Assembly: GCA_964590575.1 (NCBI GenBank)
Contig: CAZPWM010000026.1
Coordinates: 1 to 37,030, forward strand
Direction: 5' to 3'
Length of the DNA: 37,030 nucleotides
Source of the DNA: an uncultured archaeon
GTDB lineage: Archaea; Asgardarchaeota; Thorarchaeia; Thorarchaeales; Thorarchaeaceae
In this document: positions 12,688 through 30,466 of the stretch, one piece after another
Position numbering within the stretch: position 1 is the first letter of the stretch
Layout of the letters: the number at the start of each line of letters is the position of its first letter
Notes under the pieces: generated by a model
What the model saw: the letters and a program-made list of their open reading frames with translations, nothing else
Told to the model about the DNA's origin: nothing
Database searches by the model: none
Translations under genes and position numbers: made by a program

Positions 12688-13705
12688 AGAAACGAATAAT
12701 GAAACTCAGCAGTCAATGATCAGTACACAGAAGGTCATCTTGTTTGTAATATTCAGCATTGTTGTCTTCGCGTTTGTGGGACTCTACGGTCAAATAGGCG
12801 CAGTCATAGATGCTCTCGCGTCCATTCCATGGTGGTGGGTCATACCAACCATGATGGGCGTGTCATTCCTAAACTACATCATTCGATATGTGAAGTGGCA
12901 ATACTTTCTTGGTCGCATCGAGGTCAATCTCTCACATAAGGATAGCTTTAGTGTTTTTCTTGCTGGATTCACGTTGACAACAACACCGGGTAAGATTGGA
13001 GAAGCAATCAAAGGATACTTCATTCGAGACATTGATGGAACACCTGTAGCCAGAACGGTCCCAGTAGTAGTTTCAGAACGAGTAACAGATCTACTTGCTC
13101 TTGTTCTGCTTGCAATGATTGGGTTTGGAATTGGAGTGAACACTGGAGATCAGCTTCTCACAGTCCTAATGTTAGGTGGTGTTGTTCTTGTTGCAGCCAT
13201 TGTTCTCAGCCAGAAAACGTTCTATGAGAAGATACTCAAACGGTTCATGTCAATTGGTCCTCTGAAGCGCTTCGCGAGCAGTTATGATGAAATCGAGAAT
13301 ACGATGACTAGGACACTAGGTCCAAAACCACTTATCCTGAGTACCATTGTCTCGATCCCTGGTTGGTTCATGGAATGTCTCGAGCTATGGCTGCTGCTCA
13401 GCTTGTTAACAGTCACGCCTGCGTCAATCATTCTCTTACTGCAAGCTACGTTTGTTCATGCGACAGCTTCTATTATTGGTGCGGTGTCATTCCTACCTGG
13501 AGGAGTTGGCACATATGAAGCCACATCCGTCTTATTGATGCAACTCCTACTAGGAATTCCAGTTGCTCTTGCAGGTGCAGCCACAATTCTAATTCGCGTA
13601 GTCACCTTATGGTTCAGTGTCATTGTAGGATTTGTCGCACTTGGAATTGTAACCCGCGCCACAAGAAAACGTCGAGGGACTAGCGAGTTATCTGATAACT
13701 CTTAA
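12674..13705 (+). CDS. Lysylphosphatidylglycerol-synthase TM / flippase-like (UPF0104) membrane protein
   Basis: R.vKW..fL, TPGKIGEAIK, ERVTD, LPGGVGTYE and LIRVVTLW motifs, with about 8 TMs. Confidence 0.88.
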   Translation: MTAGEETNNETQQSMISTQKVILFVIFSIVVFAFVGLYGQIGAVIDALASIPWWWVIPTMMGVSFLNYIIRYVKWQYFLGRIEVNLSHKDSFSVFLAGFTLTTTPGKIGEAIKGYFIRDIDGTPVARTVPVVVSERVTDLLALVLLAMIGFGIGVNTGDQLLTVLMLGGVVLVAAIVLSQKTFYEKILKRFMSIGPLKRFASSYDEIENTMTRTLGPKPLILSTIVSIPGWFMECLELWLLLSLLTVTPASIILLLQATFVHATASIIGAVSFLPGGVGTYEATSVLLMQLLLGIPVALAGAATILIRVVTLWFSVIVGFVALGIVTRATRKRRGTSELSDNS

Positions 13706-14768
13706 CGAGCTCCAGCATCTCTCGTGCGCTCTTCGTCTTCTCGAAGTGTGTGCGAACAGGTTCGACCATCTTATCTAGATAAGTGACCATTGTATTCTTC
13801 AAATCAAGAGGATGAAGGTTTCCAGCTACATACGATTTCTCTAACTCCATGTAGCTTGTGAAGTCTATATCGCCACCGAATTTTGGTTTTCGCTCAACCC
13901 TCACGCTACTGTTACCACGGAAAACAATGTGTTTAGCATAGTCAAGTAAGGGATTTCCTTCTGCCACTTTTGGTGGACAGTAGGCGGCCATGACTTTCTT
14001 TCGAATATCGTCCACATTATCGTGAACAAAGATACTTGATTCGGGCTTGCTCTTACTCATTTTGGATGAGATCTGCACATCAAACCCCTTTTCCTCATCA
14101 AAACCCTCAGGTTCCGCTGCCCCCTCCAAGTTCATGAGCATGTGATGACTGATGACAACAGGTTTCCACCAACCTAGTTTTGGCCCAACCTCTCGTGCAA
14201 GTATATTGGCTCTGCGTTGGTCGAGACCTAGTTGAGTGATATCAGCTTCAAGATGGAAGATATCAGACACCTGCATCATTGGATAGAAGTATTGAGCAAC
14301 CTCTTTCATCTCGCCTTCTTTTCGCCCCATTATTGTAAGCGCTCGAGTAGCTCTAGCTACTGTTGTGTTCTTAGCTATTTTCACAACGCGAGACCAGTAG
14401 TCCACGGAGTCCATTGCTTCTGAAGCCCAGAGAAACTCCACTTTATCGGTTGGAACACCGGCAGCTTTCCAGACCTCAATGAAATACTCACCAACCTGCC
14501 TGATTTTCTCTAGATCTCCATCCATCTTATTGTTAATCCAAGCGAACCAGTCTGCCAGCCAGATCTTGAATCTAACTCCAGCTTTTATGAGATCCTTGAG
14601 AAGTAATGGCCTATAAACACCAAAAGGCATATGCGCTAACCCAGAGGGTTCGAATCCATCATATGCGATTGGATTCTTCTTCTCTTCCAAGAGCTGCTTT
14701 AGCTCAGGCATTGTGACTACTTCTTCACCTACTCCGGCGATTAGTTTGATTCGTTCATCGAGGTCCAT
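13680..14768 (-). CDS. tyrS: Tyrosine--tRNA ligase (archaeal/eukaryotic type)
   Basis: AYDGFEPSG, ADWFAWIN, YPMMQVSD, GLDQR, KMSKS and LHPLDLK motifs. Start set at MDLDERIKL. Confidence 0.96.
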   Translation of the reverse strand: MDLDERIKLIAGVGEEVVTMPELKQLLEEKKNPIAYDGFEPSGLAHMPFGVYRPLLLKDLIKAGVRFKIWLADWFAWINNKMDGDLEKIRQVGEYFIEVWKAAGVPTDKVEFLWASEAMDSVDYWSRVVKIAKNTTVARATRALTIMGRKEGEMKEVAQYFYPMMQVSDIFHLEADITQLGLDQRRANILAREVGPKLGWWKPVVISHHMLMNLEGAAEPEGFDEEKGFDVQISSKMSKSKPESSIFVHDNVDDIRKKVMAAYCPPKVAEGNPLLDYAKHIVFRGNSSVRVERKPKFGGDIDFTSYMELEKSYVAGNLHPLDLKNTMVTYLDKMVEPVRTHFEKTKSAREMLELVKSYQITR

Positions 14769-14809
14769 AATAGTTGAAAGAAATTCGTTCTCACTTAACT
14801 TTTCTCCAA

Positions 14810-14856
14810 GATGGAATGAAAAGAAGTAGATACCAGCTGGCACAAAACCAGCTGGT
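14810..14856 (-). terminator. Hairpin plus pyrimidine tract after the giant-gene pair
   Basis: ACCAGCTGG-7nt-CCAGCTGGT at 14832-14856, followed on the minus strand by TCTACTTCTTTTCATT. Confidence 0.5.
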
Positions 14857-14870
14857 TCTTTGTTGTATTC

Positions 14871-17800
14871 CTAGTCAATGTCGATACCAAGACTGCTCAG
14901 AAGAGCATCAAGATCAGCTTTTGAGAGACTCTTAGCTTCTTCAATTATGACATCAATCTCATCAACCATCATTCCCTTCTTGATGAGTTTCCTGCGCAAG
15001 TCTTCAAGCTCTTCAGGTCGCTGTTCTAGGGGTACATCCTCGAGAACTGGTTCACCCACTGGGGGTTTGGCGAGCACGTCAGCACGGCGAGCTTTCTCTT
15101 GGTCAATAACTTCCTTAAGGAAGCCTGGACGCTCACTAGCCTTCATTCTAGCTAAATCAGCTCGGAATGCCTCGATCTCGACAACACCAAGCCCAGTGAT
15201 ACCAGCGAGTTCTTCGAGTAATTCATTGACTTCTGGCACAGTTGTCTCAATCGGGTATTCAACAATCTCATCAGGTTCTTTTGATAGATTCATCGGTTTT
15301 GCTTCTTCATTGACAATACCCATCGCTATGCTTTGCCTACTAGGTGCTCTTGGAGGCTTTGGAATACGACCCTTACCAAGTGCTCGAATCATCCTATTCA
15401 AAGTTCGAATCTGCTTTGGAACACTCCAAACTCTTACGTAAGCCACGATGAGCAAAGCTATGAAAATCAGGGCGGTGCCGCCGACCATCGTTAATGCTTG
15501 CTGGAATTGCTGCTGCGCAGTAGTATCAGACTTGATTGTGAATATCAAATATTGTGAGAAATGATCCTCTTTTTCGAAGGTTATGGTAATGGTGAAAGTT
15601 CTTTCTCTTTCGACTCGGAAGAATAGTGTGTAGACACCATTCTCATCAAGGGTCCACTCTTCCAAGTATGTGATGTTGGTTTGACTATATGTAACAGTTA
15701 CATTGGCATCTGATATTCCAACTTGGTGGTCTAGATCGAAATAGGTAATCGAGATATCAAAGGTTGTTCCGGGCGATGTGTATTCTATGTCAGTGAGATA
15801 TCTCAGTTCAGTTAGAATTCGACGAATGGTGAGTTCAAGGTAGACTGGTGATGTGGTATACTTTGCTGAAGTAAACCCGATAGCAAAACTGTAAGTTCCG
15901 TAGGGGAGGTTACTGTCCAAAATCAAAGAATAGTTGCCATTAGGTAACAATTGCAACGCAAAATCACCAAGAGCATCGGAATGTGCGAAGCAATTCACAT
16001 CAACAATAGAAGAACCATCCAAGGTGTTGTTGACTAAGTATTCAATCTCAACACCTTCGTTCACAGGAGCTGATAGTTGAATTGGGCCTAGTATCTCAGT
16101 GGGAGTAGCATAGATCTCTATCTTTGTCGTGGTTGTTCTTGCAGTGTAGTTCGTAAGACTGAATTGTACAACAATATCATAGACGCCTGGAGTTGTCAGA
16201 GTTATGTCAACACTAACCAGATAATAACCGTTGAGTAAATCAATCACTGGAAGAGAACCGCCATCCCATGAAGCGACAACAGTCGCACCAGGGATTGGTA
16301 CTTTATGCTGATCGTCATAATAGTAGAAGGTGTAATTCTTCTGGGAACCAAAATATCCAGATTGAAGTGGCGTGTCTACTGAAGAAAGCGTGGGGATTGG
16401 TAGGATTGTTACAATGATAGATTTGATACCAGTAGCATACCCATCCTTTATTGCGATTATTCGCAGATATATCGACTGAGCTGCTAATGAGCTTACATCA
16501 ATAGTTGCGCTATATGTCCCATTCCCCCAAGATGTTAGGTTGCCTGTGAGACTTCCAAGTGTGTAGGTCACATTAGCACCAGTGACTAGAAGTGCATGGT
16601 ATGTGTCATTGAACACTACCAGAATGTCAAGCGTGTCTCCAAAGAAGACGTTCAACAATGTGCTTCCATCAGATAGAGCAAGAGTAGTCGGAATTGGTGT
16701 CACGCTGATGTCAATGGTGGTTTCAAGAAATGCATGATTGGGTGCTGTTGCCCTTATCGTCAAAGGATACTGACCAATCGCAAATCCAGTTACATCGACA
16801 GTTCCAGTGTAATAACCAGGAGTACCAGTAGGAGTCATTGGATAAACGGTTCCGTTCCATTCGGCGGTAACCGTCGCGCCAGTCACGGATGTATTAGAAA
16901 CCGTATCATTGAGATAGACAGTAAAGCCTCCTGTTGTATCTATGATAATATCATAGAGGGAGAACTCAGGTATTATCTGCCCAGTCGCTTTAGATACGAC
17001 CAGTGTGAATGTTGTCTGTCGTTGCTGATAGAACTGTTTAGTTACTGTGAATTGAGGTTTGTAAATCCCATAGTCTTCAATAGATGTATCAAGCAGAATG
17101 CCATAGAATCCGTTTCCAAGTTCTGAAACTGGATGCACCATTCCATTCCAGAGAAGCGTCGCAGTCATCCCTGTTACTGGAGTGTTATAATAGGGTTCTC
17201 GAACTTGGAATGTGATATTAAGAACTTCACCCCAATCACCATAGTATGCTGTCTTGGACAGAAATATCTCAACAGTTGCTGCTCCAGGTTGAACAGATAC
17301 GGTAGCAATTGCACTGTCGTAGAATGGCTTCTCAGCCCAGATTTGAAATATATGATTCTCTGCAAGAAGGCCAGTGGTATTGAGCGTAATCTTGTATACA
17401 CCATTACCAATTTCCTCAATTTGATAGCTTGTGCCAAATAGAAGAGTCCAGTTTGTGACGATGGACGCACCTGCTAAAGGCACATCGTGATCGAAGTCGG
17501 TCAGAGTGAGTATGACCTCGATTGGAACTCCAACAGCTGTGCTTCCAGCAGGAGGTGCTTCAGCCAATAATGATGTCTGAATATTTTTGACTGTTGCAGG
17601 AACATTTAGAGTAGTTCTAGTCGCATAGAAGGGAGAACCGGTCTTGCTCATAGTCAAATCAAAGTAGACAGTTCCAGTGTTGCCGAAGATTGTGCTATTG
17701 ATGTAGATTCTGTAGGTTCCGCCAGCTTCACGAACAAGCTGATAACCTGAAAGTGTCCCATTAACACTTGTAATTAGGAGAACTGCATCATCAATTCCAA

Positions 17801-20800
17801 GACCAGTGAGATAGTCTATGTAACTGAGCTCGATTGTTATATTGTCATAGTAAGGAGTATCCACAACCAATGGGAAGAGGATTTGCGTTGGTCGTTCAGT
17901 TGTTGTAACTCGAGTCACAGTATCTCTTGGTGCATAATAAGGCTCTCCACTACCAGTATCAATAGACAATTGAATCTCATATCCAGTTACTAGAGCGGTA
18001 GGATTAAGGATTGTAGAAGCGAATGATATCTCATAGTATGTTGGATACTCAGTTAATACATAATCAACAGACGCAATAATAGTATGTGAAGGGCCATGGG
18101 ATAATGTGATATTGGTTTGATCGATGGCAATCTTTGTACCAAGTAAGAAGTCTGTATACTTGAACCTGAATACAACATTCTCTAGAAATGCTACCTCTCC
18201 AGGCGTCTTGGTGATCAGAATTTGAGTTGTCCTTGTGGTAACCCGCGCAATCACATTAAGAAACTGTGGTAAGTAGAATGGTTCTCCTGTGAATGAAACA
18301 GAAACAGATAGTGCATAAGGACCTGGTGAACCAAGCGCTACTGTGTCTATATCGATTACATACTGTCCTGAACCAATGTAAAAGACCCAATAGTTTGAAT
18401 TTAGTATCAATGAGCTTGTTCCGTTTCCAGTTACAACAATGTTAGCGCCGCTAACACCTCTACCTGTGCTATCATCTATGTAAATCACGACGAAAGTAAC
18501 ATTTGCCTGATAGGGCGCGGGGTCAGGGCTATCATACCCAACCTGTGTAGAACGCTTCAATATCGAGAAATCAAAGATATCAATTGCTGTAGCATAATTT
18601 GAATTTGTATGAACGATTGAAGCATTCACCTGATATACGCCATCAGATACGAAAGCAGTTGTATTTAGAATTACTAGAAAGTGTCCATTCCCAATAGAGA
18701 TGACCGTGTATTTACTTGAATCTACATCAAGTGTCAATGTACCAGTCATGCCAGTTGTTGTGCCAGCTACTAGATCAGTATAGACAAACTCTATTGTGAC
18801 ATTATTTCCCCATTGACCTGGTGCAAATGAAAGATGAGTTAGCTGAGTACTTCTTAGAGTCACAGTTACCGTAAATACATGGCCTCCAACAGCCGCATAG
18901 AATGGGATTCCTGTCCAAGTTACATTGAGGTGAAGAATGTGAGTACCTATACTAGGTAACGTTGCTGTGTCAATCATTACTGAAAATTCATGTAATAAGA
19001 AATCATAGGTAACATTAAAGATGACTCCAAGCTCGTTAATGGAAACTTGGAGCTGAATTGAATCATCTATCTCTGTGTTTGTCAGTGCGTCTATGTAACT
19101 AAATGTAAGCTCCGCCCATTCACCATAGGCTGTTGATGGGACCGGTGCATAATCCACATACGTTGGTCGATCTAGTACTATCAAGGATACAACCATCGTC
19201 TGGTTCTCATAAAGCGGTGATACTCCCTTACTCCACATGATGTCAAGCTGGAATCTGAAAGTGGTTGTGTCTGGAAATAGTGAGCTATCCAGAAGGAAAA
19301 TATAGGTTCCAGGAGTACTTGAGGATTCGTAGATTGTGAAGTCACTCTGTGTGACTGAATGACCAAGGTCCAAGGGAGTAATCTGGAGCAATACATCGAA
19401 TGTGCTGTTGTCAATCCTGTCAAGTCCAATGGCGTCCCAATAAACTGCGGTGAAGTTGAAGGAGTTCAGATAATAGGTCGCAGTCGGGGCTAGTTCAAGA
19501 TAGAGATCCGTGTCAGTTCCTGTAATCTTGACCGTAGTCACGATCGTCTGACTATAGAACTTATCAACTACACCAGTCCATTCTATAAAGATGGTCAAAT
19601 CTTTTACACCAATGCTGCCCCATTGATCACTAAGGAAAGTGATATTGTAATGTCCCAACCCAAGTGAAGAGTCAGTACTTACATAATAAAGGCTCGAAAT
19701 ACCTGGTGATGTAACGGTGATTCGAACTTCTCCAGTTACATTTCCTATACCAACTCGTAGGTCTGTGTCTTGATAGAACACTAGGATACTAATTGTGTCA
19801 CCATATTGCGTCTGTGAAACAGGCTTGTCCAGAATAAAGAGGGTATTTCGTTTTCTAATCTCTATACCAATATCGAAGGTGTGATTCTGATGGTTACCTT
19901 TCATCACATTGAATGTCACAACATAGAGATCATCACCCACTGTGAGTGGGTCTTCATTCTTGGTGTAGATTGTGATATTATAAACGCCTGCTGTTCCTGT
20001 TTCAATTACTGTATAGTTCTTATCACCGGATTGATGGAAATCAGTCCAGTTGCAAGTTATTGATGCATTAGAACCAGAAATAGGAGTATCATGATCCGTA
20101 TCGGTCCAAGTGAATAAGAATGAAGAAGCTTCACCAACTGGGATTGATAGCTGATTTGATGTATATTTTATAGAGTTATAGATCTCCCGAACTTCTGCAT
20201 ACATCACCATACTCTGCGGTTCAATATATGGTCCGGTTGCATACACACTGATTGGATAATCACCAATTGGTAGTCCTGACGTGTCAAGTACAAACTTATA
20301 CTGTCCTGATCCCAAGGGCGTCATTGTATATGGGTTTGACCAATCACACCAGACGGTTGCAGTAGTGATTCCAGTTCCATTCACATTCTTAAAATTGACA
20401 GTGAAGGTTTGATCATCGTTTACAGGACCTGAGATACCTGGATACTCTGGCGAAGTGAGTGTAGCTGCATAGTTCACATTTATAGTCAAGGCTGTAGCGG
20501 ATGGATCATAGTTGGGATGAGCCCAATCAAGATCCATCACGTAATGGCCCTTACCTGGAAGACCTGAGGTGTCAATGACTTTCGTGTATTGGCCATTACC
20601 ATTGTCATCAAAGGTATCGGTTCCTAAGACCCAATCCAGTGTCAAAGTCCCGCCAGGTACTAGAACCGAACTGTCGGTGTCTGTCGTTTCCAGAATAATG
20701 AGTAGTAGGTCACCGAATGTGACATTAGTCAACATAGTACCAATTGCATCAGTCGGATATAGTAGTTCTATATCAGAAGCATGAGTGACCTTGAAGGGTC

Positions 20801-22622
20801 TCTTGAAGAAACCACTTGAGGTCCAGTCACCACCAACTCCAATGTCGTGGCTAGAAGCTTGGACCATCCAATCACCAGCGGTCGCATTGGCGCCGCTAAG
20901 AGTGAATGTTGTAGTGGTCGCATACCCAGTTCCATCTACTGTAGATGTTAGAGTTAGCCACTCTGATTCATCTGGCCCAATGATTGTGATATTCACATCT
21001 GCTCCATTGAACTGAAGTCCAATGTAAACACGAGCTCTTGTTGTGGCTCCAGCCCTGAGATTTACGTTCCGCTCCCAAGTACCACCCACTGGTTCCCAAA
21101 GCTCCAAGTCTGAGATCATATTCGGAGACGTGCTAAGAACTCGCCAGTACCCGTACCGTCCCGGTTCGTTTGTAATGTCATAAGTTGAAACATTGAGATA
21201 TCCATCACCAGCATTACCACCACTCCACCCTGATGTAAGATTTGAAGTCGGTGCGAGAGGTTGCGCAACAAACGTGACATCTCGATTAGCAGGTAATGTT
21301 TCATTGAAGAAATACAGATTTGCATAGCCAGTTGGGATGTCAGCACGGAAGTAGGACGTGAATCTAGCTGAAGTTCCATTTGATATCGTGAACCGTTCCC
21401 CAAATGCTGTGGGGTTTATTTCTCGGTGACTGGGTATATCTAAGCTTCTAGCGAACATGTTGACATTGATATCAAAATCAATGTGTATCTCGTTGTCGGG
21501 ATTGGGTGTTGAAGGAATAGGAGTCCATGAGAAGGTAAGAGGGACAGGATTGGTAATCCATGGACTTCCAGGAGTTTGAGTTATGGAACAGGCTCCGCGG
21601 GCGGCTCCGTCGCTGATATCTAGACCATTCATTTGGAGATTTATCTCACTTGGATCAACGTAGGTCTTCATGAATAGTTCAATGTTATCAAATCGGGCAC
21701 GTGGATGTATGTTTGGTGCATAGCCTACACTTGCCAGGGAAACAAGTCCTACTTCTGTTGTGACCGTTGAGTCTCCAGGCAATCCGAAGATTGAAGGACT
21801 CACACTAACTAGACCAGAGTTGTACCATGTTTCCTCAGCATCAATTTCCTCAAACACAAGATTCCAGATTTCTACACCTTCAACACTAGCGTATACACGA
21901 AACGAACCAGTCATGCCATAATGGGAGTCATCCTGTGTATCCGCCCAATAGTCTAAACGTAATCCAGCCCATACTACGGAGCCTCTGGAAACAGAAGTGT
22001 CTTGATCATATGCGGCTCTATCATTGGTATCGTAGTAGAAGGGTTGACTACCACTGTTTGAATCGATATCGACTTCAATGCAATCGTCGTTGAGACCGTG
22101 CCCATCATCACTCCATAATATTGTAGGTGTGCTATAAGAACCAACATTGAGTATTGCATTATTCCAACCATTTGCATTTCCTTGGAATCCAGGATTTGTA
22201 ATCCACGTACGATTCTCAGTAAGGTCGTTAATACTGACTTGTGCTTCATATGCTTCCCAATCTAATCCTGTTGGAACGTTTGCTTGGACACTTGTAGTCC
22301 CACTGCCGGGGACATATGTCATCTGCTGGTCATTAAGGATGTTTGTGCTGTTACCATATTCTGAACCAATCAGGGGCGAGCTGATACCATTCCACGCAGT
22401 CCAGCCCTGCTCAGTTAGAATATACCGCTGAAGTATTTCATTGGGGGCAAGTTCGATGAATTCGCCATTTCCGATATCCACCAATCGAGTGTCTTCTATG
22501 ATTGAACCGCTGGCATCAGGTATAGTCGAGGCAGGAATATAGCCTTGCGGAGTCACAAATATGGGTGCTAGCATTAATGCAAGGAGAAGTGCAATTGGTA
22601 TGAAACGTCGTATGTTCCTCAT
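14871..22622 (-). CDS. Giant single-pass surface protein B (2583 aa): signal peptide, N-terminal beta-rich head, Ig-like repeat stalk, TM, cytoplasmic helical tail
   Basis: N-terminal signal and ~100-aa repeats (F/Y-x-D...I-x-GA...GxGxY-x-I-x-(L/I)DT...GxY). Many N-x-S/T sequons. TM GGTALIFIALLIVAYV and a ~190-aa charged tail. Confidence 0.85.
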   Translation of the reverse strand: MRNIRRFIPIALLLALMLAPIFVTPQGYIPASTIPDASGSIIEDTRLVDIGNGEFIELAPNEILQRYILTEQGWTAWNGISSPLIGSEYGNSTNILNDQQMTYVPGSGTTSVQANVPTGLDWEAYEAQVSINDLTENRTWITNPGFQGNANGWNNAILNVGSYSTPTILWSDDGHGLNDDCIEVDIDSNSGSQPFYYDTNDRAAYDQDTSVSRGSVVWAGLRLDYWADTQDDSHYGMTGSFRVYASVEGVEIWNLVFEEIDAEETWYNSGLVSVSPSIFGLPGDSTVTTEVGLVSLASVGYAPNIHPRARFDNIELFMKTYVDPSEINLQMNGLDISDGAARGACSITQTPGSPWITNPVPLTFSWTPIPSTPNPDNEIHIDFDINVNMFARSLDIPSHREINPTAFGERFTISNGTSARFTSYFRADIPTGYANLYFFNETLPANRDVTFVAQPLAPTSNLTSGWSGGNAGDGYLNVSTYDITNEPGRYGYWRVLSTSPNMISDLELWEPVGGTWERNVNLRAGATTRARVYIGLQFNGADVNITIIGPDESEWLTLTSTVDGTGYATTTTFTLSGANATAGDWMVQASSHDIGVGGDWTSSGFFKRPFKVTHASDIELLYPTDAIGTMLTNVTFGDLLLIILETTDTDSSVLVPGGTLTLDWVLGTDTFDDNGNGQYTKVIDTSGLPGKGHYVMDLDWAHPNYDPSATALTINVNYAATLTSPEYPGISGPVNDDQTFTVNFKNVNGTGITTATVWCDWSNPYTMTPLGSGQYKFVLDTSGLPIGDYPISVYATGPYIEPQSMVMYAEVREIYNSIKYTSNQLSIPVGEASSFLFTWTDTDHDTPISGSNASITCNWTDFHQSGDKNYTVIETGTAGVYNITIYTKNEDPLTVGDDLYVVTFNVMKGNHQNHTFDIGIEIRKRNTLFILDKPVSQTQYGDTISILVFYQDTDLRVGIGNVTGEVRITVTSPGISSLYYVSTDSSLGLGHYNITFLSDQWGSIGVKDLTIFIEWTGVVDKFYSQTIVTTVKITGTDTDLYLELAPTATYYLNSFNFTAVYWDAIGLDRIDNSTFDVLLQITPLDLGHSVTQSDFTIYESSSTPGTYIFLLDSSLFPDTTTFRFQLDIMWSKGVSPLYENQTMVVSLIVLDRPTYVDYAPVPSTAYGEWAELTFSYIDALTNTEIDDSIQLQVSINELGVIFNVTYDFLLHEFSVMIDTATLPSIGTHILHLNVTWTGIPFYAAVGGHVFTVTVTLRSTQLTHLSFAPGQWGNNVTIEFVYTDLVAGTTTGMTGTLTLDVDSSKYTVISIGNGHFLVILNTTAFVSDGVYQVNASIVHTNSNYATAIDIFDFSILKRSTQVGYDSPDPAPYQANVTFVVIYIDDSTGRGVSGANIVVTGNGTSSLILNSNYWVFYIGSGQYVIDIDTVALGSPGPYALSVSVSFTGEPFYLPQFLNVIARVTTRTTQILITKTPGEVAFLENVVFRFKYTDFLLGTKIAIDQTNITLSHGPSHTIIASVDYVLTEYPTYYEISFASTILNPTALVTGYEIQLSIDTGSGEPYYAPRDTVTRVTTTERPTQILFPLVVDTPYYDNITIELSYIDYLTGLGIDDAVLLITSVNGTLSGYQLVREAGGTYRIYINSTIFGNTGTVYFDLTMSKTGSPFYATRTTLNVPATVKNIQTSLLAEAPPAGSTAVGVPIEVILTLTDFDHDVPLAGASIVTNWTLLFGTSYQIEEIGNGVYKITLNTTGLLAENHIFQIWAEKPFYDSAIATVSVQPGAATVEIFLSKTAYYGDWGEVLNITFQVREPYYNTPVTGMTATLLWNGMVHPVSELGNGFYGILLDTSIEDYGIYKPQFTVTKQFYQQRQTTFTLVVSKATGQIIPEFSLYDIIIDTTGGFTVYLNDTVSNTSVTGATVTAEWNGTVYPMTPTGTPGYYTGTVDVTGFAIGQYPLTIRATAPNHAFLETTIDISVTPIPTTLALSDGSTLLNVFFGDTLDILVVFNDTYHALLVTGANVTYTLGSLTGNLTSWGNGTYSATIDVSSLAAQSIYLRIIAIKDGYATGIKSIIVTILPIPTLSSVDTPLQSGYFGSQKNYTFYYYDDQHKVPIPGATVVASWDGGSLPVIDLLNGYYLVSVDITLTTPGVYDIVVQFSLTNYTARTTTTKIEIYATPTEILGPIQLSAPVNEGVEIEYLVNNTLDGSSIVDVNCFAHSDALGDFALQLLPNGNYSLILDSNLPYGTYSFAIGFTSAKYTTSPVYLELTIRRILTELRYLTDIEYTSPGTTFDISITYFDLDHQVGISDANVTVTYSQTNITYLEEWTLDENGVYTLFFRVERERTFTITITFEKEDHFSQYLIFTIKSDTTAQQQFQQALTMVGGTALIFIALLIVAYVRVWSVPKQIRTLNRMIRALGKGRIPKPPRAPSRQSIAMGIVNEEAKPMNLSKEPDEIVEYPIETTVPEVNELLEELAGITGLGVVEIEAFRADLARMKASERPGFLKEVIDQEKARRADVLAKPPVGEPVLEDVPLEQRPEELEDLRRKLIKKGMMVDEIDVIIEEAKSLSKADLDALLSSLGIDID

Positions 22623-25600
22623 TCTTCCATACCTCCTATCTCTCTGAGTAGAGCGTCTATTTCCGCTCTTGACAAGTTCTTGGCTTGTTCAATCATTAAT
22701 TCAGCCTCAGTTTCTTCAATGCCCATATTCAATAGTCGCTCCTTCAAATGGACCAACTCTTCGTCAGACAGGCGTGCTTCCTCAACCTCCGCAGGTACGC
22801 CTTCCTCTGCTACACGCTCAGCGTCAGCAAGCTCTCGAGCTCTCCTAGAACGTTCCTGTTTGAGGACTTCGTTTATGAAACCAGCTCTTTCGCTAGGTCT
22901 CATCTTATCGAGATCCTGACGTAATGTCTCAACATCTGTTGGTGTTAAACCAACAACAGTTGCTAAATCGCTAAGCAGATCCTCGACATCCATTGCAGCT
23001 ACATCAACTGTGGATATACTAATGTCATGCATAGATTTCTGAATTCCAATAGGTGACAAGTCTTCATTCATTATATCTAGAAGCATCTCACGCCGGAGTC
23101 GTACGTTTGCAGGCTTGGGTATTCTACCCTTGCTGAGAACTGCAATCATTCGTCTTATGATTCGCAAGAGACGAGGAACTGAAAGGACTCGGAAGTAAAG
23201 AGCAGCAAGAGCTGCAATTGCAAGAATTCCTATTGTACCAAACTGGAAACCCATCACTAGAGCCTCTTGTTCGGGGCTCAAAGCTGTATAGATGTCAAAA
23301 GAAAGAGAATACAAAGCATAATCGACCTTACTAACATCTATCTGAAGGGTATAGAATGCAAGATTAGGAGCACGGAAAGCCAAAGTATAAGTCCCGTTAC
23401 CATAATCTACGTCAAGGTTTAATTCTCGGACCAAACCCGGGTCAGTCGCAAAACTGCTTGTCGAGAACGGATTAAGGTCAGCATCTTGGATGGGAACATT
23501 GTGATCAGTATCCCAATATGTGAAGTTAACTAAGATTATGTCTCCAACTTGGATAATACTCGGGAGAGGATCCCAGTACACTTCTGTTGCTATTTCTCGT
23601 ATTGTCAGAGTTACAGAAACAACATTGCGAGAATAGTTACCACGAGAAATAGCTAGTGATAGTATATAGGGTACAACCCGATCTTGTAGCGGGGTTGGAA
23701 GGTTAGCTTCGCTGGGACCAAATAAGTAGGATCCATTGTTCAGGTTTGTTAAAACTGCAGTTCCAAATTCCCAAGTAATTGTTGCGTAAGCGTCTGTGAT
23801 CCATTCGTTATTGAGAGTGTCATTGAAGCTAAATATAATACTATAGTTATCATATACTGCAAATTCCGCTGTAAGAGAACCAATGATTTCAGTTGGAATG
23901 GGATTGACTAAGAGTTTCACAAGACCGTATGCAAAGTCATAGTTATCTTTTCGAAATGAAACAGTGATGTCATGAGGTACACCTCCAGCAGATACTACTG
24001 AAGTGTCAATAGTCAAGGAGTACATACCATTACCAAGTTCAACAAGTGAACCTCGTACGTGTTCAAGTGTGTAGTTTGTGATTGCACCAGGTATTCCTTC
24101 ACTTGCGTGTGTGTCGGTGAATATGAAGTAAAATGTAACAGTCTCCCCATAGTTTCCTGCTAAGGTAGCGGGAGTATTATAAAGCTCGATAGATGTTTCT
24201 ATGTTTTCAATCCTCAGAGTAAATTGTATTGAGGAGGGCGCAAACCCAGGTTTCACACTGGAAATGGAAACCGTCCATTCTTGAACACTAAGATATGATG
24301 TGTTGATGTAAGCACTGTAGTAGCCAGGTGTTCCTAGCTCAGTAAGATTTCCAACGATAGGCCCAACTCCAAACGAGATTGTTGCTCCATCAACAGGCAA
24401 GTTGAGATCGGTATTATTCAAATACACTGTTATGTTTGTAAAATCACGGAAGTTGACTGTTTCTACACTGCTAGATATTGGAACCAATTGGGTTGCAATC
24501 TCAGTGATCTCAATAGTCAGCTGATAACTAACACTCTTGAAATTCGCAGAAGAGGCCTGTACTAGGATCTGATGAGATCCTACCGATGCGCCGCTGACTT
24601 GAAAGTCAACAATATATTTTCCATCAACAGCAGACCAAGAGAGAACACCTGTTCCTCCCACCCAACTATAAGTCACATACCCAACATCTTCTATCGGTAA
24701 GCTACTGGAATATATGAGGTAATCAACCTCAATGGTGACAATTTGACCATTGACGGCTGTTTGGGGATCAAGAGAAGCAGTGATTTTAGCAGGTATCTTT
24801 TCAATCCTGATTTGGAAATCTCTTACTCGAGATTCAAAATTGACTAGGGATGATTCCACCGTAATTGTATACTCTCCAGAACTGAAAGATGAAGTGTCTA
24901 CAGTGCAGTTGTATAATCCATCTATGACCCAAGTCAGATTACAACTAATCGTAGCTATTGTGAGATTGACATATGCACCGATAACAGGCTGTCCTGTTAG
25001 AAGGTTTGTCACATTAGCCTGTATCTGAACCAAATCTCCCCAAACAGGATTCGGGGGTGAGAAAACAAGTTCAATCTGAACAGGTATGGCTGCAAGAAGA
25101 ATATCTGCAGATATTGATTGAGACAAGTATTGAGATTTAGTAGCATTGACAGTGAAACGATACAATTGTGCATCGAGACCTGATGTGTTGATTGCCATTT
25201 GATAGATACCAGGAGCTATTGTTGTAATCGTATAGTTTGTTCCATAGAGTGTTTCCCAATCAGTTGTGATAGTAGCACCTGCGATTCCTGTACCAAACGC
25301 TATTGCGGTATAGGTGATATTTGCATATACAACATCTCCAAGATAATAGGTGACACTCCCAGGTAGCACAAAGTTCAGTGACGTAGAAACAGGATTCACG
25401 TTGATACTGAATCTTAAGCCAGTGACATTACTATAGTAAGGACTACCAGTCCAAGTGAAGTTTGCTTCGAAGAAGAAACGGCCTAGTCCAGCTAGAGTGT
25501 TAGAATCGATCAGGGCGGTATATGTTCCATCAAGATTGTCTATCTCCCAGTGGGTGAAACTTGTTGTGTTCAGACACTTAATGGTCAGTGTAGCACCTGA

Positions 25601-28600
25601 TACAGGAGTACCAGTCAAGTAATCACTGAATCTAAGTAGGGCACTGATATTGAAGTAGTAGTATCCCGGTGGTGTCTGTAAGACAGTTCCTTGAGTGAAT
25701 CTACCTATAATTGTGACCTCAGTTGAAGTAGTGGAGTTAGAAAAGTACGGTGATACATCGCCCCAAACAAACTTCACGAAGATCGGATATTCGTCCACAA
25801 GTACTGATGAAAGAACCAATGAACTAATTGAGATTGTATAGACACCATTGGAACCAGTGATAGAATACTGAGAACTGGTGATAACTGTCCCACCATTATG
25901 AGTGAGAATAAGATTAGATTTGTCAAATGCAATTCCCGTATCAGTTAAACCATCAGTCACTGACACTTCAAAGGTCACATTTGCTAGGAAGGGCGTATTA
26001 AGTGGTGATTTTGTTACCGTTAAACTTGCAGGACGACGAGAGACCTCAATAGCAACGTTGCGAATTCTTGTTTGGTAGAATGGTTCACCTGCAGTCCAAG
26101 ATACTGTAATGGTTATTGAATATGGTCCAAAGTTACCAAGAGCAACAGTATCGATATGCACTGTATATGATCCATCCAAGTTATCATCAACCCAATAGTT
26201 CACACCAAGTTGAAGTGGTGTCGATGCTGCGGGACATGAAGCAATTACTTGCGCTCCAGAGATTCCTGAACCAGTACTATCATCAGTATAGTAAACTGTA
26301 ATATTTGCTTGAGTCAGAAAAGGTGCGAGATCTGGTAAGTCACTAGTCAGCTGTGTACGTCTTACCACAAGTGTGAGATAAAATAGGTCAGTGGCGTCTG
26401 CGCAGTACCTAGTTCCTCCGTAAAGAATTGAAACATTCACATTGAAGGTTCCTATTAATCCAAAGGCGGATGTATCAAGATGTAATGTATAGGTTCCATT
26501 CCCTATATCATCTACTGTGTAGTAAAACTCTAACCACGCATCAAGTGAGAGAGTACCACCATCCATATTGAGAGTGGTGTAGTCGTCTAGGTCTCTGAAT
26601 GTGAAATTGAGATTCAAAGTTCTACCAAATTCCATAGGTGAGTAGGTGCCATGAGTGAGTGATGTGTAACGCTCCCTAACACTAATACGAATCTGAACAC
26701 CAGTACGGTTCTGATGGAATGGAGCTCCTACCCATTCAACATTGATTGTAAAAGTGTGGCTTCCTGGTGTGAATGCTAATGTGTCCACTTCAATGATAAA
26801 GAGTCCAGTCGCATCACCATCATAATAGATGTTGAATGAATAACCGGGGATTGTGATTGTGAGTTGACTGCTGTTTTGAATTGGTAAGCCCGTCAATGAG
26901 TCTCGATAAGTCAAAGTTAGATTGACGGTTTCATCATATGGTGTCAGTGGGAGTGGATTCCAATCTACGGTTGTTAATCGTTGGCTGGCATAGACTGTTA
27001 CAACTATCACTTTATTGTTATAATATGGTAATTGTCCACTAGACCAGTTCAACCATACCCGGAGTTCACACTCACCAAGACCTGTCAATAAATCAGTGTC
27101 AAATGTAATTCTGTATTCACCAGGGCGAGTAGCAAAATCGATTTCTAAAATTATCATATCAGCTTGAGTTAAAGTTTGACCGGGGGTAAGGACATCAATG
27201 TAAATGTGGAGATTACCAGCATAGGGTCCGGTGGTATTAACAATGCCAGTATCACCACCAATATCAAAGTAGATTATGCTGAAAGAAACATCCTCGCCAA
27301 AAGCAGTATTAACTGGACTTTCACCGATATAGATGTCAGATGGAGCTGCTGTAATTCTCACTGTTGTTGATAACGAAAGGTTGGAATATTTCAGATTCAC
27401 TCCAACCCAGTTCATTGTTATATCAAGGTCTATGATTCCTGTGTCACCCCATTGATTTGCAGGAATGTGGATGATATAGAGACCCTCAGGAGATATACTA
27501 AACACATAGTAGGCGGGTGAGGGCAAAGTTGGACTAGTAATGATTAGTTCCACATATCCTCCCAGAGTAGTACCATTAACAATTCCAGTTGTTGCATCGA
27601 CATCGTAGTAAACGAGTCCCACTGTGATATTCCCAGTATACGGAGTCGGGTCAACTGCATTATTGAGATAGAATGAAGTTAGGTGTGTTCGAAGCTCGAC
27701 AGTGACAACAAAGGATTGATTCTGAGCTCCGTATTTTTCAACCATAAAGACAACATCGTAGGAATCCAGTATATCATCATCCATTGAATATATGACAACC
27801 TCATAAACACCGGGAGTTGCAGTTTCTGTAACTGTGTAATTCTGATCACCACTCTCGTGAATATCAGACCAATTGCAGCTGATTGCACTCGCGGCTCCTG
27901 TAATTGGTGCAAGAAAATCTGTGTCTCGATATGTAATCCTGAATGATGTAGTATATCCAACTGGAAGTGAAAGCAAGCTTGACGATGGAATAGCAGATGT
28001 ATGAAGCTCACGCACATTTACTGTTAGAATAATCGATCGTGATTCGAAGTAATTCTTAGCGGATGTAATCCGTATAGGGTATATCCCGAGGGATTCTCCT
28101 GTTGTATCTAGACTTAAGACATAATGACCAGCAGACTCCTCAACAATACTATAAGATTGAGACCAGTTGCAACTGATACTTGCAGTTGTCACAGGTTGAG
28201 CAAGCATATCCTCAAAATAGACATGCAGGTCTGCATCATAACCGCTTGGAACATTAATACCAGGTGCATCTGATGAATACAAGTCGGTATCATAAATCAC
28301 GTTCACAGTGAACGTTTCTAAGAGAGAATCGTAGTTTGCTTTAGTCCAGTCAAGGTCAACATCATACTGGCCATTTGATGAAAGGATGCTCGTATCGAGC
28401 GTAACACTATACTCACCAGTACCCATATCATTCACAGTACCTGAACCAAAATCACCAGAATAAGTCATCACACCAGCAGGAAGAAGGGCACCGTTGTCGG
28501 TGTCATTAACACGAAACTGAAGGAAGACAATTTCACCAAATGTAACATTGTAGCTCCATGTGGTTTGACCTGAAATCGGATATTTGACTGTCATTTGGGT

Positions 28601-30466
28601 TGAGTGGTCGATATCGAAACTTCGTGCGAAATATCCAATATTGTGGACTTCACTACCAGAAGCAGAATCATCAACAGACACATGTACTTCCCAGTTTCCA
28701 ACTCCTGCTGAAACAGCATCTAAATTAACATATGAGGTGATTGCATATCCACTCGAATCCACAACCACAGTTAGTGTATCCCATATTAGACCATCTGAAT
28801 CATAAATAGTGAAATTAACTTGGTCACCTTGATAACCTGTAGGAAGCACTGCGCGGAACCTAGTGTCTTCATTTGCTCTGAAAGTCTTGGTTTGTACCCA
28901 CTGTCCAATACCGTCATCCCATACTTGAAGATTGGTGACCATATTGGGTGAAGTCCCTCGTATCATCCAGAAACCATTCGGATCAGATAATCCAATTTCA
29001 TAGACGGATACATTGACCACGCCATCACCAGGGTTTCCCAAAGCCCAATTGCTAGTTAGGTTCGTATACCTATGGAATGGTTCCGAAACGAACGTAATAT
29101 CCCGATTCAATGGCAAGGTGACATTGAAGAAGAAGAAGTCACTATAACCACTTGGCACAGAAACATAATAATTCGTTTCCCAACTCACTTCCGTCGCGTT
29201 ACTCACAACATAATTGTCTCCTAACGTAATGAGTTCAGTATCATTAATCGTAGGTGTCTGTAACTTCCTGGCAAACACCCAGACATCAACATCAAAATTC
29301 ACAAAAATATCTAAATCTGGATCTGGAGGATTTGGAGTTGGAGTCCAAGAAAAGTTTGCCCAAGCAAGTCCTTGAGTCCATGGAGTGACGGGAGTGTATC
29401 TTGCGGTTCCTAGACCAAAAACTGGAATGGAACCCTGAAGGACATTGTCAACATCAACTCCATTCATTTGAAGATTGACATCTTCAGGTGTTGCCTTAGC
29501 AGTCACGTAAACTACAACATTGTCTAATCTTCCTTTTGGTATAATATCTGGTCTCCACCACTCAAGAGCAGTGGTTCTAAGTCCAGCCCAAATTGAAACA
29601 TTGGGTAATGTTAAGAAAGAAGTATCAATCTCAATATACCCGGTTGAGTACCAAGTCAGATCATCTTCAAAAGCGTCATATGGCAGGTGCCAAAGATAGG
29701 TTCCGCCATTATCTGGGTCACCAATTGAAACAAAGAGCTCAAAGAATCCAGTCATAATGCCCCATGCAACATCACCCCAATAATCCAATGAAATGCCAAT
29801 TGAAGATACGTCACCTCGATTAATGGAAAGGTTCTGAACCATGTATGATTTATCCCCAACTTCGTACCACCAACCACGTAGTCCTCCACCCTCATCATGA
29901 TAGTATCCAGTCATATCAAAATAAGCTGCACCATTTCCTGCTCCATGACTGTTAGCTTGCCATTCTGATGTGAAAGCATTATCATAGGTCGGACCACTCC
30001 CAAAGATTGAAGGTTCATCGTGGGATAGAAAAGTCCAGTTAGTGCTATCATCCAGTCCGGGATTTTCTATCCAGTTTCTATTCTCAGTGACACTTGTGAT
30101 ATTGGTGTACACATCGTAACCTTCCCAACCACTGCCCAGTGGTACGGATAGGTCAGCTGTTGTTGTAGTCTGACTTGCGGATACATAATCCATCTGTTTG
30201 TCAGTGAATGTATCAATGCGGATTCCTGATTCATCAGCCAACAACGGATCACCTGTTCCTGACTGTTGAGTTGGTATATCAGAAAGAGCATATTCTGTGA
30301 TCACTTCATCCGGAGCAATCTGAATGACCTCTCCGTTTGAGAGCTCGACAGTTTTGCTATCCGCAGATTCTTGTGTAAATGCCAATGGATTTTCAGGTAT
30401 GATAAGTATACCTAAAAATAAGGGCAGAAACACAATAAGCAAACCTATCATCTTCTTTAGCTTCAT
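22619..30466 (-). CDS. Giant single-pass surface protein A (2615 aa), colinear paralog of B
   Basis: Same architecture as B, with TM FGTIGILAIAALAALYF. Its stop overlaps the start of B (ATGA at 22622-22619). Confidence 0.85.
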   Translation of the reverse strand: MKLKKMIGLLIVFLPLFLGILIIPENPLAFTQESADSKTVELSNGEVIQIAPDEVITEYALSDIPTQQSGTGDPLLADESGIRIDTFTDKQMDYVSASQTTTTADLSVPLGSGWEGYDVYTNITSVTENRNWIENPGLDDSTNWTFLSHDEPSIFGSGPTYDNAFTSEWQANSHGAGNGAAYFDMTGYYHDEGGGLRGWWYEVGDKSYMVQNLSINRGDVSSIGISLDYWGDVAWGIMTGFFELFVSIGDPDNGGTYLWHLPYDAFEDDLTWYSTGYIEIDTSFLTLPNVSIWAGLRTTALEWWRPDIIPKGRLDNVVVYVTAKATPEDVNLQMNGVDVDNVLQGSIPVFGLGTARYTPVTPWTQGLAWANFSWTPTPNPPDPDLDIFVNFDVDVWVFARKLQTPTINDTELITLGDNYVVSNATEVSWETNYYVSVPSGYSDFFFFNVTLPLNRDITFVSEPFHRYTNLTSNWALGNPGDGVVNVSVYEIGLSDPNGFWMIRGTSPNMVTNLQVWDDGIGQWVQTKTFRANEDTRFRAVLPTGYQGDQVNFTIYDSDGLIWDTLTVVVDSSGYAITSYVNLDAVSAGVGNWEVHVSVDDSASGSEVHNIGYFARSFDIDHSTQMTVKYPISGQTTWSYNVTFGEIVFLQFRVNDTDNGALLPAGVMTYSGDFGSGTVNDMGTGEYSVTLDTSILSSNGQYDVDLDWTKANYDSLLETFTVNVIYDTDLYSSDAPGINVPSGYDADLHVYFEDMLAQPVTTASISCNWSQSYSIVEESAGHYVLSLDTTGESLGIYPIRITSAKNYFESRSIILTVNVRELHTSAIPSSSLLSLPVGYTTSFRITYRDTDFLAPITGAASAISCNWSDIHESGDQNYTVTETATPGVYEVVIYSMDDDILDSYDVVFMVEKYGAQNQSFVVTVELRTHLTSFYLNNAVDPTPYTGNITVGLVYYDVDATTGIVNGTTLGGYVELIITSPTLPSPAYYVFSISPEGLYIIHIPANQWGDTGIIDLDITMNWVGVNLKYSNLSLSTTVRITAAPSDIYIGESPVNTAFGEDVSFSIIYFDIGGDTGIVNTTGPYAGNLHIYIDVLTPGQTLTQADMIILEIDFATRPGEYRITFDTDLLTGLGECELRVWLNWSSGQLPYYNNKVIVVTVYASQRLTTVDWNPLPLTPYDETVNLTLTYRDSLTGLPIQNSSQLTITIPGYSFNIYYDGDATGLFIIEVDTLAFTPGSHTFTINVEWVGAPFHQNRTGVQIRISVRERYTSLTHGTYSPMEFGRTLNLNFTFRDLDDYTTLNMDGGTLSLDAWLEFYYTVDDIGNGTYTLHLDTSAFGLIGTFNVNVSILYGGTRYCADATDLFYLTLVVRRTQLTSDLPDLAPFLTQANITVYYTDDSTGSGISGAQVIASCPAASTPLQLGVNYWVDDNLDGSYTVHIDTVALGNFGPYSITITVSWTAGEPFYQTRIRNVAIEVSRRPASLTVTKSPLNTPFLANVTFEVSVTDGLTDTGIAFDKSNLILTHNGGTVITSSQYSITGSNGVYTISISSLVLSSVLVDEYPIFVKFVWGDVSPYFSNSTTSTEVTIIGRFTQGTVLQTPPGYYYFNISALLRFSDYLTGTPVSGATLTIKCLNTTSFTHWEIDNLDGTYTALIDSNTLAGLGRFFFEANFTWTGSPYYSNVTGLRFSINVNPVSTSLNFVLPGSVTYYLGDVVYANITYTAIAFGTGIAGATITTDWETLYGTNYTITTIAPGIYQMAINTSGLDAQLYRFTVNATKSQYLSQSISADILLAAIPVQIELVFSPPNPVWGDLVQIQANVTNLLTGQPVIGAYVNLTIATISCNLTWVIDGLYNCTVDTSSFSSGEYTITVESSLVNFESRVRDFQIRIEKIPAKITASLDPQTAVNGQIVTIEVDYLIYSSSLPIEDVGYVTYSWVGGTGVLSWSAVDGKYIVDFQVSGASVGSHQILVQASSANFKSVSYQLTIEITEIATQLVPISSSVETVNFRDFTNITVYLNNTDLNLPVDGATISFGVGPIVGNLTELGTPGYYSAYINTSYLSVQEWTVSISSVKPGFAPSSIQFTLRIENIETSIELYNTPATLAGNYGETVTFYFIFTDTHASEGIPGAITNYTLEHVRGSLVELGNGMYSLTIDTSVVSAGGVPHDITVSFRKDNYDFAYGLVKLLVNPIPTEIIGSLTAEFAVYDNYSIIFSFNDTLNNEWITDAYATITWEFGTAVLTNLNNGSYLFGPSEANLPTPLQDRVVPYILSLAISRGNYSRNVVSVTLTIREIATEVYWDPLPSIIQVGDIILVNFTYWDTDHNVPIQDADLNPFSTSSFATDPGLVRELNLDVDYGNGTYTLAFRAPNLAFYTLQIDVSKVDYALYSLSFDIYTALSPEQEALVMGFQFGTIGILAIAALAALYFRVLSVPRLLRIIRRMIAVLSKGRIPKPANVRLRREMLLDIMNEDLSPIGIQKSMHDISISTVDVAAMDVEDLLSDLATVVGLTPTDVETLRQDLDKMRPSERAGFINEVLKQERSRRARELADAERVAEEGVPAEVEEARLSDEELVHLKERLLNMGIEETEAELMIEQAKNLSRAEIDALLREIGGMEE

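Follow-up and report, generated by a model that had tools for sequence, protein, structure and literature searches.

The 37,030-nucleotide stretch of DNA analysed here (the window) comes from an uncultured archaeon of the Thorarchaeaceae (contig CAZPWM010000026.1, positions 1 to 37,030) and carries two adjacent genes, A and B, whose giant protein products both end in a conserved tail of about 190 residues. We propose, at a probability of about 0.5, that this tail is a non-enzymatic docking platform on the giant single-pass surface glycoproteins of Thorarchaeota and Hermodarchaeota (hereafter Thor and Hermod), coupling the ectodomain to the cell interior. We infer this docking role, and with it the binding of a partner, because the tail combines a conserved polar surface, sometimes multivalent end modules and the absence of a catalytic signature.

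Both genes are on the minus strand, and all gene and tail coordinates are given in window numbering. According to the open reading frames (ORFs) and their translations, gene B (14871-22622) encodes a giant type-I surface protein of 2583 residues (P0001) and gene A (22619-30466) its 2615-residue paralogue (P0002), with the stop codon of A overlapping the listed start of B by 4 bases. Each protein consists of an N-terminal hydrophobic segment (signal or anchor), a sequon-rich ectodomain and exactly one further, C-proximal hydrophobic segment, located at residues 2402-2431 of A and 2375-2403 of B (Kyte-Doolittle windows above 1.8 for B). The transmembrane helices were placed by their hydrophobic windows at about residues 2405-2425 of A (23192-23254) and, using Kyte-Doolittle windows, at about residues 2376-2396 of B (15435-15497). 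An initial annotation of the window had described a conserved tail at 14871-15440 of B, and both the observation and the coordinates were confirmed, with the genes lying on the minus strand: 14871-14873 is the stop codon, 14874-15434 encodes the tail, starting from RVWSVP, and the last two codons of the transmembrane helix lie at 15435-15440. The tail comprises 187 residues in B and 190 residues in A (22622-23191). In both proteins it is basic at first and acidic afterwards, with net charges of -7 and -11 for the two paralogues.

The distribution of charges and sequons was then used to orient the proteins in the membrane. The positive-inside rule and the archaeal N-glycosylation of exported domains are established rules of topology. 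Lysine and arginine residues numbered 2 in the 30 residues before the transmembrane helix and 9 in the 30 residues after it in B, and 1 and 8, respectively, in A; acidic residues numbered four before and none after the helix in both proteins. The ectodomains contained 54 (A) and 47 (B) N-x-S/T sequons, or 2.0-2.3 per 100 residues, against a single one in each tail (0.5 per 100), and K, R, D and E residues made up a fraction of 0.35 of the tail, as against 0.14 of the ectodomain. Since the charge distribution and the sequon density both match the established expectations, we infer that the ectodomain is exterior and the tail interior, in agreement with the cytoplasmic placement made in the initial annotation.

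BLASTP aligned the C-terminal ends of A and B with 76/191 identities (40%) and an E value of 2e-40, and in the alignment of the A and B tails all three shared motif strings quoted in the initial annotation lay within invariant columns. The two proteins are paralogous over their full length (18-47% identity per 100 alignment columns), so that the A/B comparison alone does not single out the tail. Comparison with orthologues on Thorarchaeota contigs showed the tail to be more conserved than the adjacent ~1000 ectodomain residues in 7 of 7 cases. The identities of tail and ectodomain were 85 vs 76, 79 vs 55, 79 vs 55 and 58 vs 39% for the orthologues of B, and 86 vs 82, 78 vs 58 and 56 vs 48% for those of A.

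We have modelled the B tail with AlphaFold2 on an alignment of 32 sequences. The model had a mean predicted local distance difference test score (pLDDT) of 86.7, a predicted template modelling score (pTM) of 0.49 and no stretch below a pLDDT of 50. It displayed eight main helices, at tail residues 7-20, 33-48, 67-80, 84-95, 99-116 (running on to 122), 140-152, 157-167 and 172-181. The two blocks that had been described as three-helix modules were both modelled as helix-loop-helix-loop-helix, spanning residues 67-80/84-95/99-116 and 140-152/157-167/172-181. The tail is thus predicted by the model to be folded and helical, not disordered, as the initial annotation had held.

The tail of B starts with a cationic amphipathic juxtamembrane helix (residues 7-20) followed by a KGRIPKP turn (residues 1-27, 15354-15434), a region defined by the modelled helix, its hydrophobic moment and its conservation, with S4, P6, R10, G22 and P25 invariant or near-invariant. 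The hydrophobic moment of the helix was 0.80 in B and 0.81 in A, values reached in 7/1000 and 30/1000 shuffles, respectively, and its net charge was +4 in B; the family medians were 0.65 for the hydrophobic moment and +7 for the net charge of the first 30 tail residues. As judged from these features, the helix probably lies in-plane on the inner face of the membrane. It is followed by a second helix (33-48), carrying an SRQ...N motif, and an extended connector (residues 28-65, 15240-15353; pLDDT 79-88), in which R33 and N42 were near-invariant among the 32 sequences. The charge turns negative from here on, with 20-residue windows over residues 41-80 giving -4 and -5 in B and -2 and -5 in A, and windows beyond residue 80 giving 0 to -5, save for one +2 window in A.

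The core three-helix module, or block 2, occupies residues 66-122 (15069-15239) and its helices were modelled with a pLDDT of 93-97. Its invariant positions in the 32-sequence alignment were L72, L76, M97, S100, F105, E108, V109, Q112 and E113. Along helix 3, the invariant Ser, Glu, Arg, Glu, Gln, Glu, Arg and Arg residues (S-E-R...E...Q-E...R-R) were spaced over the length of the helix. This conservation suggests a binding surface, because these residues are polar, unlike the hydrophobic ones that the core of a bundle needs, and we consider the polar row of helix 3 a candidate for that surface. An acidic variable linker (residues 123-138, 15021-15068), with the lowest pLDDT of the model (68 at residues 121-130), leads to the C-terminal three-helix module (residues 139-187, 14874-15020), which is present in one to four copies in relatives. 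When the isolated end module was predicted alone, three helices were again obtained (11-24/28-40/43-53; pLDDT 77.4). Based on the A/B alignment and BLASTP, the A tail has the same architecture, with the juxtamembrane region at 23111-23191, the core module at 22826-22996 and the C-terminal module at 22622-22771.

To see which proteins carry the tail, the initial annotation had suggested searching proteomes with a profile of both tails. The search of such a profile against 1,835,955,588 cluster-representative proteins returned 114 representatives at E ≤ 1e-3, 101 at 1e-10 and 47 at 1e-30. The match started at the juxtamembrane motif in 94 of 116 proteins (the 114 representatives plus A and B). 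Measured from this motif to the protein end, 32 tails had 180-199 residues, eight had 220-239, 39 belonged to a class of 240-259 residues with a longer acidic linker, and five, with four end modules, to the longest class of 400-419 residues (~407); ten of the 94 were truncated fragments. Linker length determines the difference between the ~185- and the ~240-residue classes. The alignments, the domain tables and a collinear hhalign comparison upheld the order of the parts, in which the juxtamembrane motif precedes the core module and this in turn one or more end modules. In A, in B, in six ORFs of their own genome and in the 94 of the 116 proteins whose match starts at the juxtamembrane motif, the protein is large and exported and its tail comes directly after the single C-proximal transmembrane helix.

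In the own genome (3.4 Mb in 194 contigs) the tail is carried by six giant ORFs, including a tandem pair of 5180 and 3979 residues, the latter with four end modules. When the tail profile was run over 301 genomes of the phylum, it matched 72 of the 76 genomes of the own family (Thorarchaeota), the only genome of the sister family (1/1) and, with weak matches, 18 of the 19 genomes of the Hermod family, a third family whose records are labelled mostly Hermodarchaeota or Promethearchaeota. Matches in five further families were limited to 3/4, 3/68, 2/4, 1/5 and 1/3 genomes, and the remaining 22 families had none. Among 79 listed proteins (query included), many were unnamed in their source and all given names were "hypothetical protein" save two, a VapB antitoxin (P0126) and a carboxypeptidase-like regulatory domain protein. 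By its profile, the tail is an unnamed domain family, as the initial annotation had thought possible, and as far as searched it is confined to two Asgard lineages.

Some relatives deserve a separate mention. The partial homologue P0126, named "type II toxin-antitoxin system VapB family antitoxin", is likely misannotated, probably owing to a sub-threshold similarity of the core module to PF07704. P0098 and P0101 combine the tail end with N-terminal parts of unrelated origin (MogA/MoaB-like in one, helix-turn-helix-like plus a membrane helix in the other); both look like chimeric assemblies or gene calls and were given no weight for architecture, and both were rows of the alignment used for the end-module model. 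A 1558-residue surface protein from another family of the phylum (locus L033, 1605-6281, plus strand, genome G282) has repeated units in its ectodomain, a run of glycines, a single membrane helix and ~430 cytoplasmic residues that hold one module copy. The region before that module looks longin/roadblock-like by eye, a resemblance that found no Pfam or PDB sequence support. In the own genome, a 182-codon single-pass membrane protein with almost no ectodomain (contig C87, 9433-9978, minus strand) has a juxtamembrane-like motif after its membrane helix (E 5.8e-6 against 22,028 ORFs) and a further stretch resembling the end module by eye, and may be a "tail-only" relative. Two other giants of this genome, of 2365 and 2514 residues (C25, 11163-18257, plus strand, and C35, 10116-17657, minus strand), have another helical motif in common at the C-terminus, preceded by an acidic linker; giants with conserved end-pieces on the cytoplasmic side may be a more general theme here.

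The Hermod tails were related to the Thor tails by reciprocal searches and profile comparison. A Hermod profile found 19/19 Hermod-family and 54/76 own-family genomes at E ≤ 1e-5, and the whole-tail profile-profile comparison of Thor and Hermod gave a probability of 97.7% and an E value of 2e-12 over 184 collinear columns. Like their Thor counterparts, the tails of the Hermod giants (loci L021-L032 and L035-L083) follow a single C-proximal transmembrane helix and present an R-V-x-S-I/V-P juxtamembrane motif, a core module, a linker and one or more end modules in this order. They differ in that the identity is only ~24% in the profile alignment, the juxtamembrane motif has PW where Thor has PK, and the linker is in some copies proline-rich instead of acidic. 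The resemblance of the first module to the later ones is plain in Hermod, whereas it has faded in Thorarchaeota.

This last difference bears on the internal repeat that the initial annotation had read into the two blocks. Within Thorarchaeota the tests of this claim gave ambiguous results. Aligned block against block with hhalign, the Thor profiles matched over 15 columns only, in a +56 register and with a probability of 51%. A gapless self-comparison of the Thor profile gave near-equal offsets of +56 and +73, the latter approximating the register of the initial annotation (whose strings differ by one residue in helix 1), and the best score was reached by 213 of 1000 column permutations. Taken alone, the Thor sequences offer a weak block resemblance, not beyond chance. 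The claim fared better through the Hermod intermediates. First and later Hermod modules aligned to each other with a probability of 94% (P 1.2e-7, 31 columns), the first Hermod module shared 50 aligned columns with the Thor core module (77%, P 2e-5), and the later Hermod modules aligned to the Thor end module over 29 columns (82%, P 1.1e-5), near the register originally proposed.

A hidden Markov model (HMM) of eight later Hermod modules, run over 84 tails at a threshold of 5 bits, matched the Thor end module 13 times, the Thor core module 12 times and other positions once; the highest score was 5.0 bits among 420 shuffled tails and 2.0 bits among 84 reversed ones. In a column-shuffle control of the hhalign comparisons, 0 of 50 shuffles reached the observed score for three pairs, including both Hermod-to-Thor pairs, and 1 of 50 did so for the Hermod first-versus-later pair, owing to one outlier shuffle; this control is lenient, because shuffling destroys the helical periodicity of amphipathic helices. 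In the AlphaFold2 model, the two Thor modules agreed in the lengths of their helices and loops when set in the +73 register. The duplication becomes credible because the Hermod intermediates link both modules, and we regard it as likely that the core and end modules stem from an old internal duplication. The end module is certainly an independent repeat unit, since its copy number ranges from 1 to 4.

Comparison with known families supported that the tail is non-enzymatic and matches no well-known housekeeping domain. At E ≤ 1, Pfam returned one family (PF07704) for the end of B and none for the end of A, neither result being significant; full-length A and B matched no Pfam family at its threshold. 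Scans of 32 family members and of the Hermod tails likewise gave no significant family. In the 32-member scan 51 families matched sub-significantly, and our checks cover the 25 of them that were listed, among which there was no UBA family. The weak hints, all below the cut-offs, were RecX_HTH1 in 6/32 members (best E 0.0017), Bap31_Bap29_C in 7/32 (best E 0.1), and Pex14_N and PYRIN in one or two members. NCBIfam gave only sub-threshold matches, and no enzymatic family was matched by the tail in Pfam or NCBIfam, in keeping with the initial remark that no catalytic motif is visible. The PDB sequence searches yielded a single marginal match (the C-terminal helices of Thf1) and otherwise nothing significant, and a search of the ESM Atlas gave no usable match.

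Three candidate identities were rejected. A VapB/MazE-type antitoxin is not supported by the scores, which were 16.2 bits for PF07704 against a cut-off of 28.3 and 17.1 bits for NF050104 against a cut-off of 65. The match to Thf1/Psb29 (5mjo) had an E value of 6.4e-4 with a two-sequence profile and was gone at E ≤ 1 with profiles of 32, 13 and 10 sequences. Matches to EF-Tu domain 2 (E 0.02-0.1) align a beta-barrel region to predicted helices, and were attributed to chance.

We have also compared the models with known folds. Foldseek gave best E values of 0.9 for the whole tail and 1.2 for the end module. In the VIA comparison, the best match of the whole tail was a designed helical protein (Z 6.6, root-mean-square deviation (rmsd) 2.6, 56 residues aligned); the core module matched designed three-helix proteins, the adenovirus cement protein and KIX domains (Z 4.8-6.6). 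The best match of the end module was to the C-terminal helices of adenylosuccinate lyase (Z 5.1, rmsd 2.1, 50 residues aligned), with SRP54/FlhF N-domain helices and paramyxovirus P X domains among its other matches (Z 3.9-5.1 overall). According to the VIA guidance, a Z below about 13 for a helical model may mean only a common arrangement. The initial annotation had been reminded of UBA domains by the sequence pattern, and in the AlphaFold2 models the end module does have the size and topology of one, namely a compact three-helix bundle of ~40-50 residues. The assignment itself was not upheld: no UBA, CUE, SAM or death-fold chain was present among the fold matches listed and no such profile among the listed rows, where the best Z values (5.1-6.6) belonged to generic bundles. 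The initial interpretation is supported in part: directly as to the tail being cytoplasmic, folded, conserved, unnamed and non-enzymatic, only indirectly as to the internal duplication, and not as to its UBA-likeness.

How the tail could work as a docking platform may be outlined as follows. At the membrane, the beginning of the tail would be held by the cationic amphipathic juxtamembrane helix, which ends in the KG(R/K)IPKP turn. One or more conserved cytoplasmic partners would be bound by the core module and by the end modules, which are flexibly tethered and in some tails multivalent; the variable acidic linker and the variable copy number are the reasons for viewing the end modules as tethered, avidity-tuned binding units. 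Such binding would couple the giant ectodomain to the interior and could serve anchoring, positioning or sensing.

Several observations weigh against this proposal. In the own genome the modules are limited to the six giants and one small membrane protein, with no candidate for a soluble homotypic adaptor. The pTM of 0.49 leaves the mutual arrangement of helices and modules undefined, and the high pLDDT of single helices is no proof of tertiary packing; membrane binding by the first helix was deduced from composition alone. The fold searches yielded only generic helical bundles (best Z 6.6 and 5.1; Foldseek E ≥ 0.9), so that the fold gives no clue to function, and between A and B the tail (35-41% identity) exceeds the remainder of the protein in conservation by no more than a small margin.

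The same lack of a soluble module-bearing protein in the own genome would be expected if the tails bound each other, acting as lateral or heterotypic modules that pair A with B or cluster the giants and so organise the surface coat. This possibility, which we rate as rather unlikely, also draws on the gene order. Counted by eye among the matches listed, at least 33 genomes have a pair of tail matches at a distance of 7.6-7.8 kb on the same contig and strand, which marks the A-B tandem as old and conserved; A and B overlap by 4 bases, Hermod genomes have arrays of three or four tailed giant genes, and end modules in one to four copies are what avidity-driven association would have. The ectodomains could do the pairing equally well, and the net acidic charge of the tails disfavours self-association without a bridging factor. 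A role in biogenesis is decidedly unlikely in our view; here the tail, as an element of stop-transfer, retention or targeting, would keep the C-terminus on the cytoplasmic side and call in machinery for insertion or quality control during export of an ectodomain of 2400-5000 residues. Such a role would account for a strongly basic, amphipathic and conserved stretch right at the membrane and for the limitation of the tail to very large exported proteins, and the SRP54 and FlhF N-domain helices (Z 3.9-5.2, within the noise of helical models) fall in with it. Only 6 of the 24 own-genome ORFs of at least 1500 residues are tailed, however, which argues against a general need of the tail for exporting giants; the other 18 end differently, several of them in an anchor plus only 1-12 residues. 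A folded domain of 190-400 residues with invariant surface residues also exceeds what a topogenic signal needs.

The gene directly upstream of A (30646-32808, minus strand) gives rise to a further alternative. It encodes P0003, a membrane-anchored protein of 720 residues with an N-terminal signal or anchor, a C-terminal transmembrane helix and a metzincin-like HExxHxxGxxH motif at residue 467; it forms part of the context and not of the tail. P0003 might cut the ectodomain, with the tail relaying the event inward. The motif is retained in 7 of 8 aligned P0003 sequences, an orthologue is present in 34 of 41 family genomes, a comparison of coordinates by eye placed the gene directly upstream of an A-type gene, in the same orientation, in at least 13 genomes, and no part of the candidate substrates is more conserved than the tail. 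We hold such a relay to be very improbable: P0003 matches no Pfam or NCBIfam family and no protease family, its activity being deduced from the motif; neither a cleavage site nor an intramembrane protease nor a DNA-binding feature turned up; and the gene order may mean co-assembly only. Hardly credible, finally, is that the modules are nucleic-acid binders of the helix-hairpin-helix (HhH) type, tethering DNA or RNA to the membrane. Between its first two helices the core module does have a hairpin of the form hydrophobic-G-L-G (ITGLG in B, IPGLG in Hermod), which we take to resemble the HhH signature, and a RuvA chain was among the end-module matches. Its Z of 3.9 is noise for helical models, however, and no HhH Pfam model matched either tail at E ≤ 1, nor the Hermod tails; the modules are acidic, and the G-x-G is confined to the first module and lost in later copies.

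The docking platform that we favour can be set beside known systems. Small docking modules such as UBA/CUE, KIX, the paramyxovirus P X domain and polyketide synthase (PKS) docking domains are, like the tail modules, non-catalytic units of 40-60 residues and three helices. The core module compared to KIX with Z 5.3 (2k0n) and 4.8 (4i9o) and to a PKS docking domain with Z 4.7 (4myy), and the end module to the Hendra and mumps P X domains with Z 4.2 and 4.0, all within the range common for helical models. No sequence-profile match accompanies these values, and the resemblance is one of kind, not of family. Eukaryotic type-I adhesion receptors resemble the giants in that they combine an extensive glycosylated ectodomain with a single transmembrane helix, a basic stretch next to the membrane and a conserved non-enzymatic tail; in integrin beta and the cadherins such tails recruit adaptors to the cytoskeleton. 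No sequence or fold relation between those tails and the Thor tail was found, nor was an NPxY or catenin-binding motif seen; the analogy is speculative, and functional only. With archaeal surface-layer glycoproteins that have C-terminal anchors, the giants share a sequon-rich, exported chain and a C-terminal hydrophobic segment. Substrates of the PGF-CTERM/archaeosortase type carry an anchor and few basic residues, and are often cleaved and lipidated, whereas the giants have a folded domain of 187-414 residues after the helix.

Non-enzymatic helical tails on single-pass surface proteins are familiar from eukaryotes, and the archaeal form had no description in the literature searched: full-text searches found none of the tail, and a report that counted three proteins of at least 5000 residues in Thorarchaeota has nothing on tails in the passages concerned (PMC11573180). 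In cryo-tomography, Lokiarchaeum ossiferum presented no ordered S-layer and "complex surface proteins" protruding from a single membrane, for which the authors suggest a possible role in cell-cell contacts (PMC9834061). The giants are of the kind seen protruding from the membrane of this cultured Asgard archaeon (PMC9834061). The tail defines a domain family that is now labelled "hypothetical protein" or, once, wrongly an antitoxin. As a compact, conserved and expressible bait of ~190 residues marking one surface-protein family in two Asgard lineages, it makes the question of how Asgard surface proteins are coupled to the cytoplasm experimentally concrete. A bolder version, to which we give little credence, would have the giants as archaeal counterparts of eukaryotic adhesion or signalling receptors, with A and B forming a heterodimer, the metzincin-like neighbour processing it and the tail recruiting cytoskeletal or membrane-remodelling proteins. 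If true, outside-in coupling between surface contacts and the interior would have been present already in the Thor/Hermod branch of eukaryotic relatives.

Contigs from three metatranscriptome libraries of three studies matched the tail-coding DNA at 95-100%. They had 151-271 bases and a depth of 2-3 and covered parts of 14871-16400, which is at most a hint of expression of the tail region, given that DNA can be present in such libraries; uncovered parts carry no information. The ectodomains of A and B (14871-30466) are built of repeated ~100-residue units with a G-x-G-x-Y motif, which weakly match filamin/gelation-factor Ig repeats (1wlh, E 0.034) and an S-layer chain (4uid, E 0.01). Downstream of B, on the same strand and after a gap of 27 bases, lies a gene for a class I Trp/Tyr-tRNA synthetase (13680-14843, minus strand; PF00579, E 6.4e-34).

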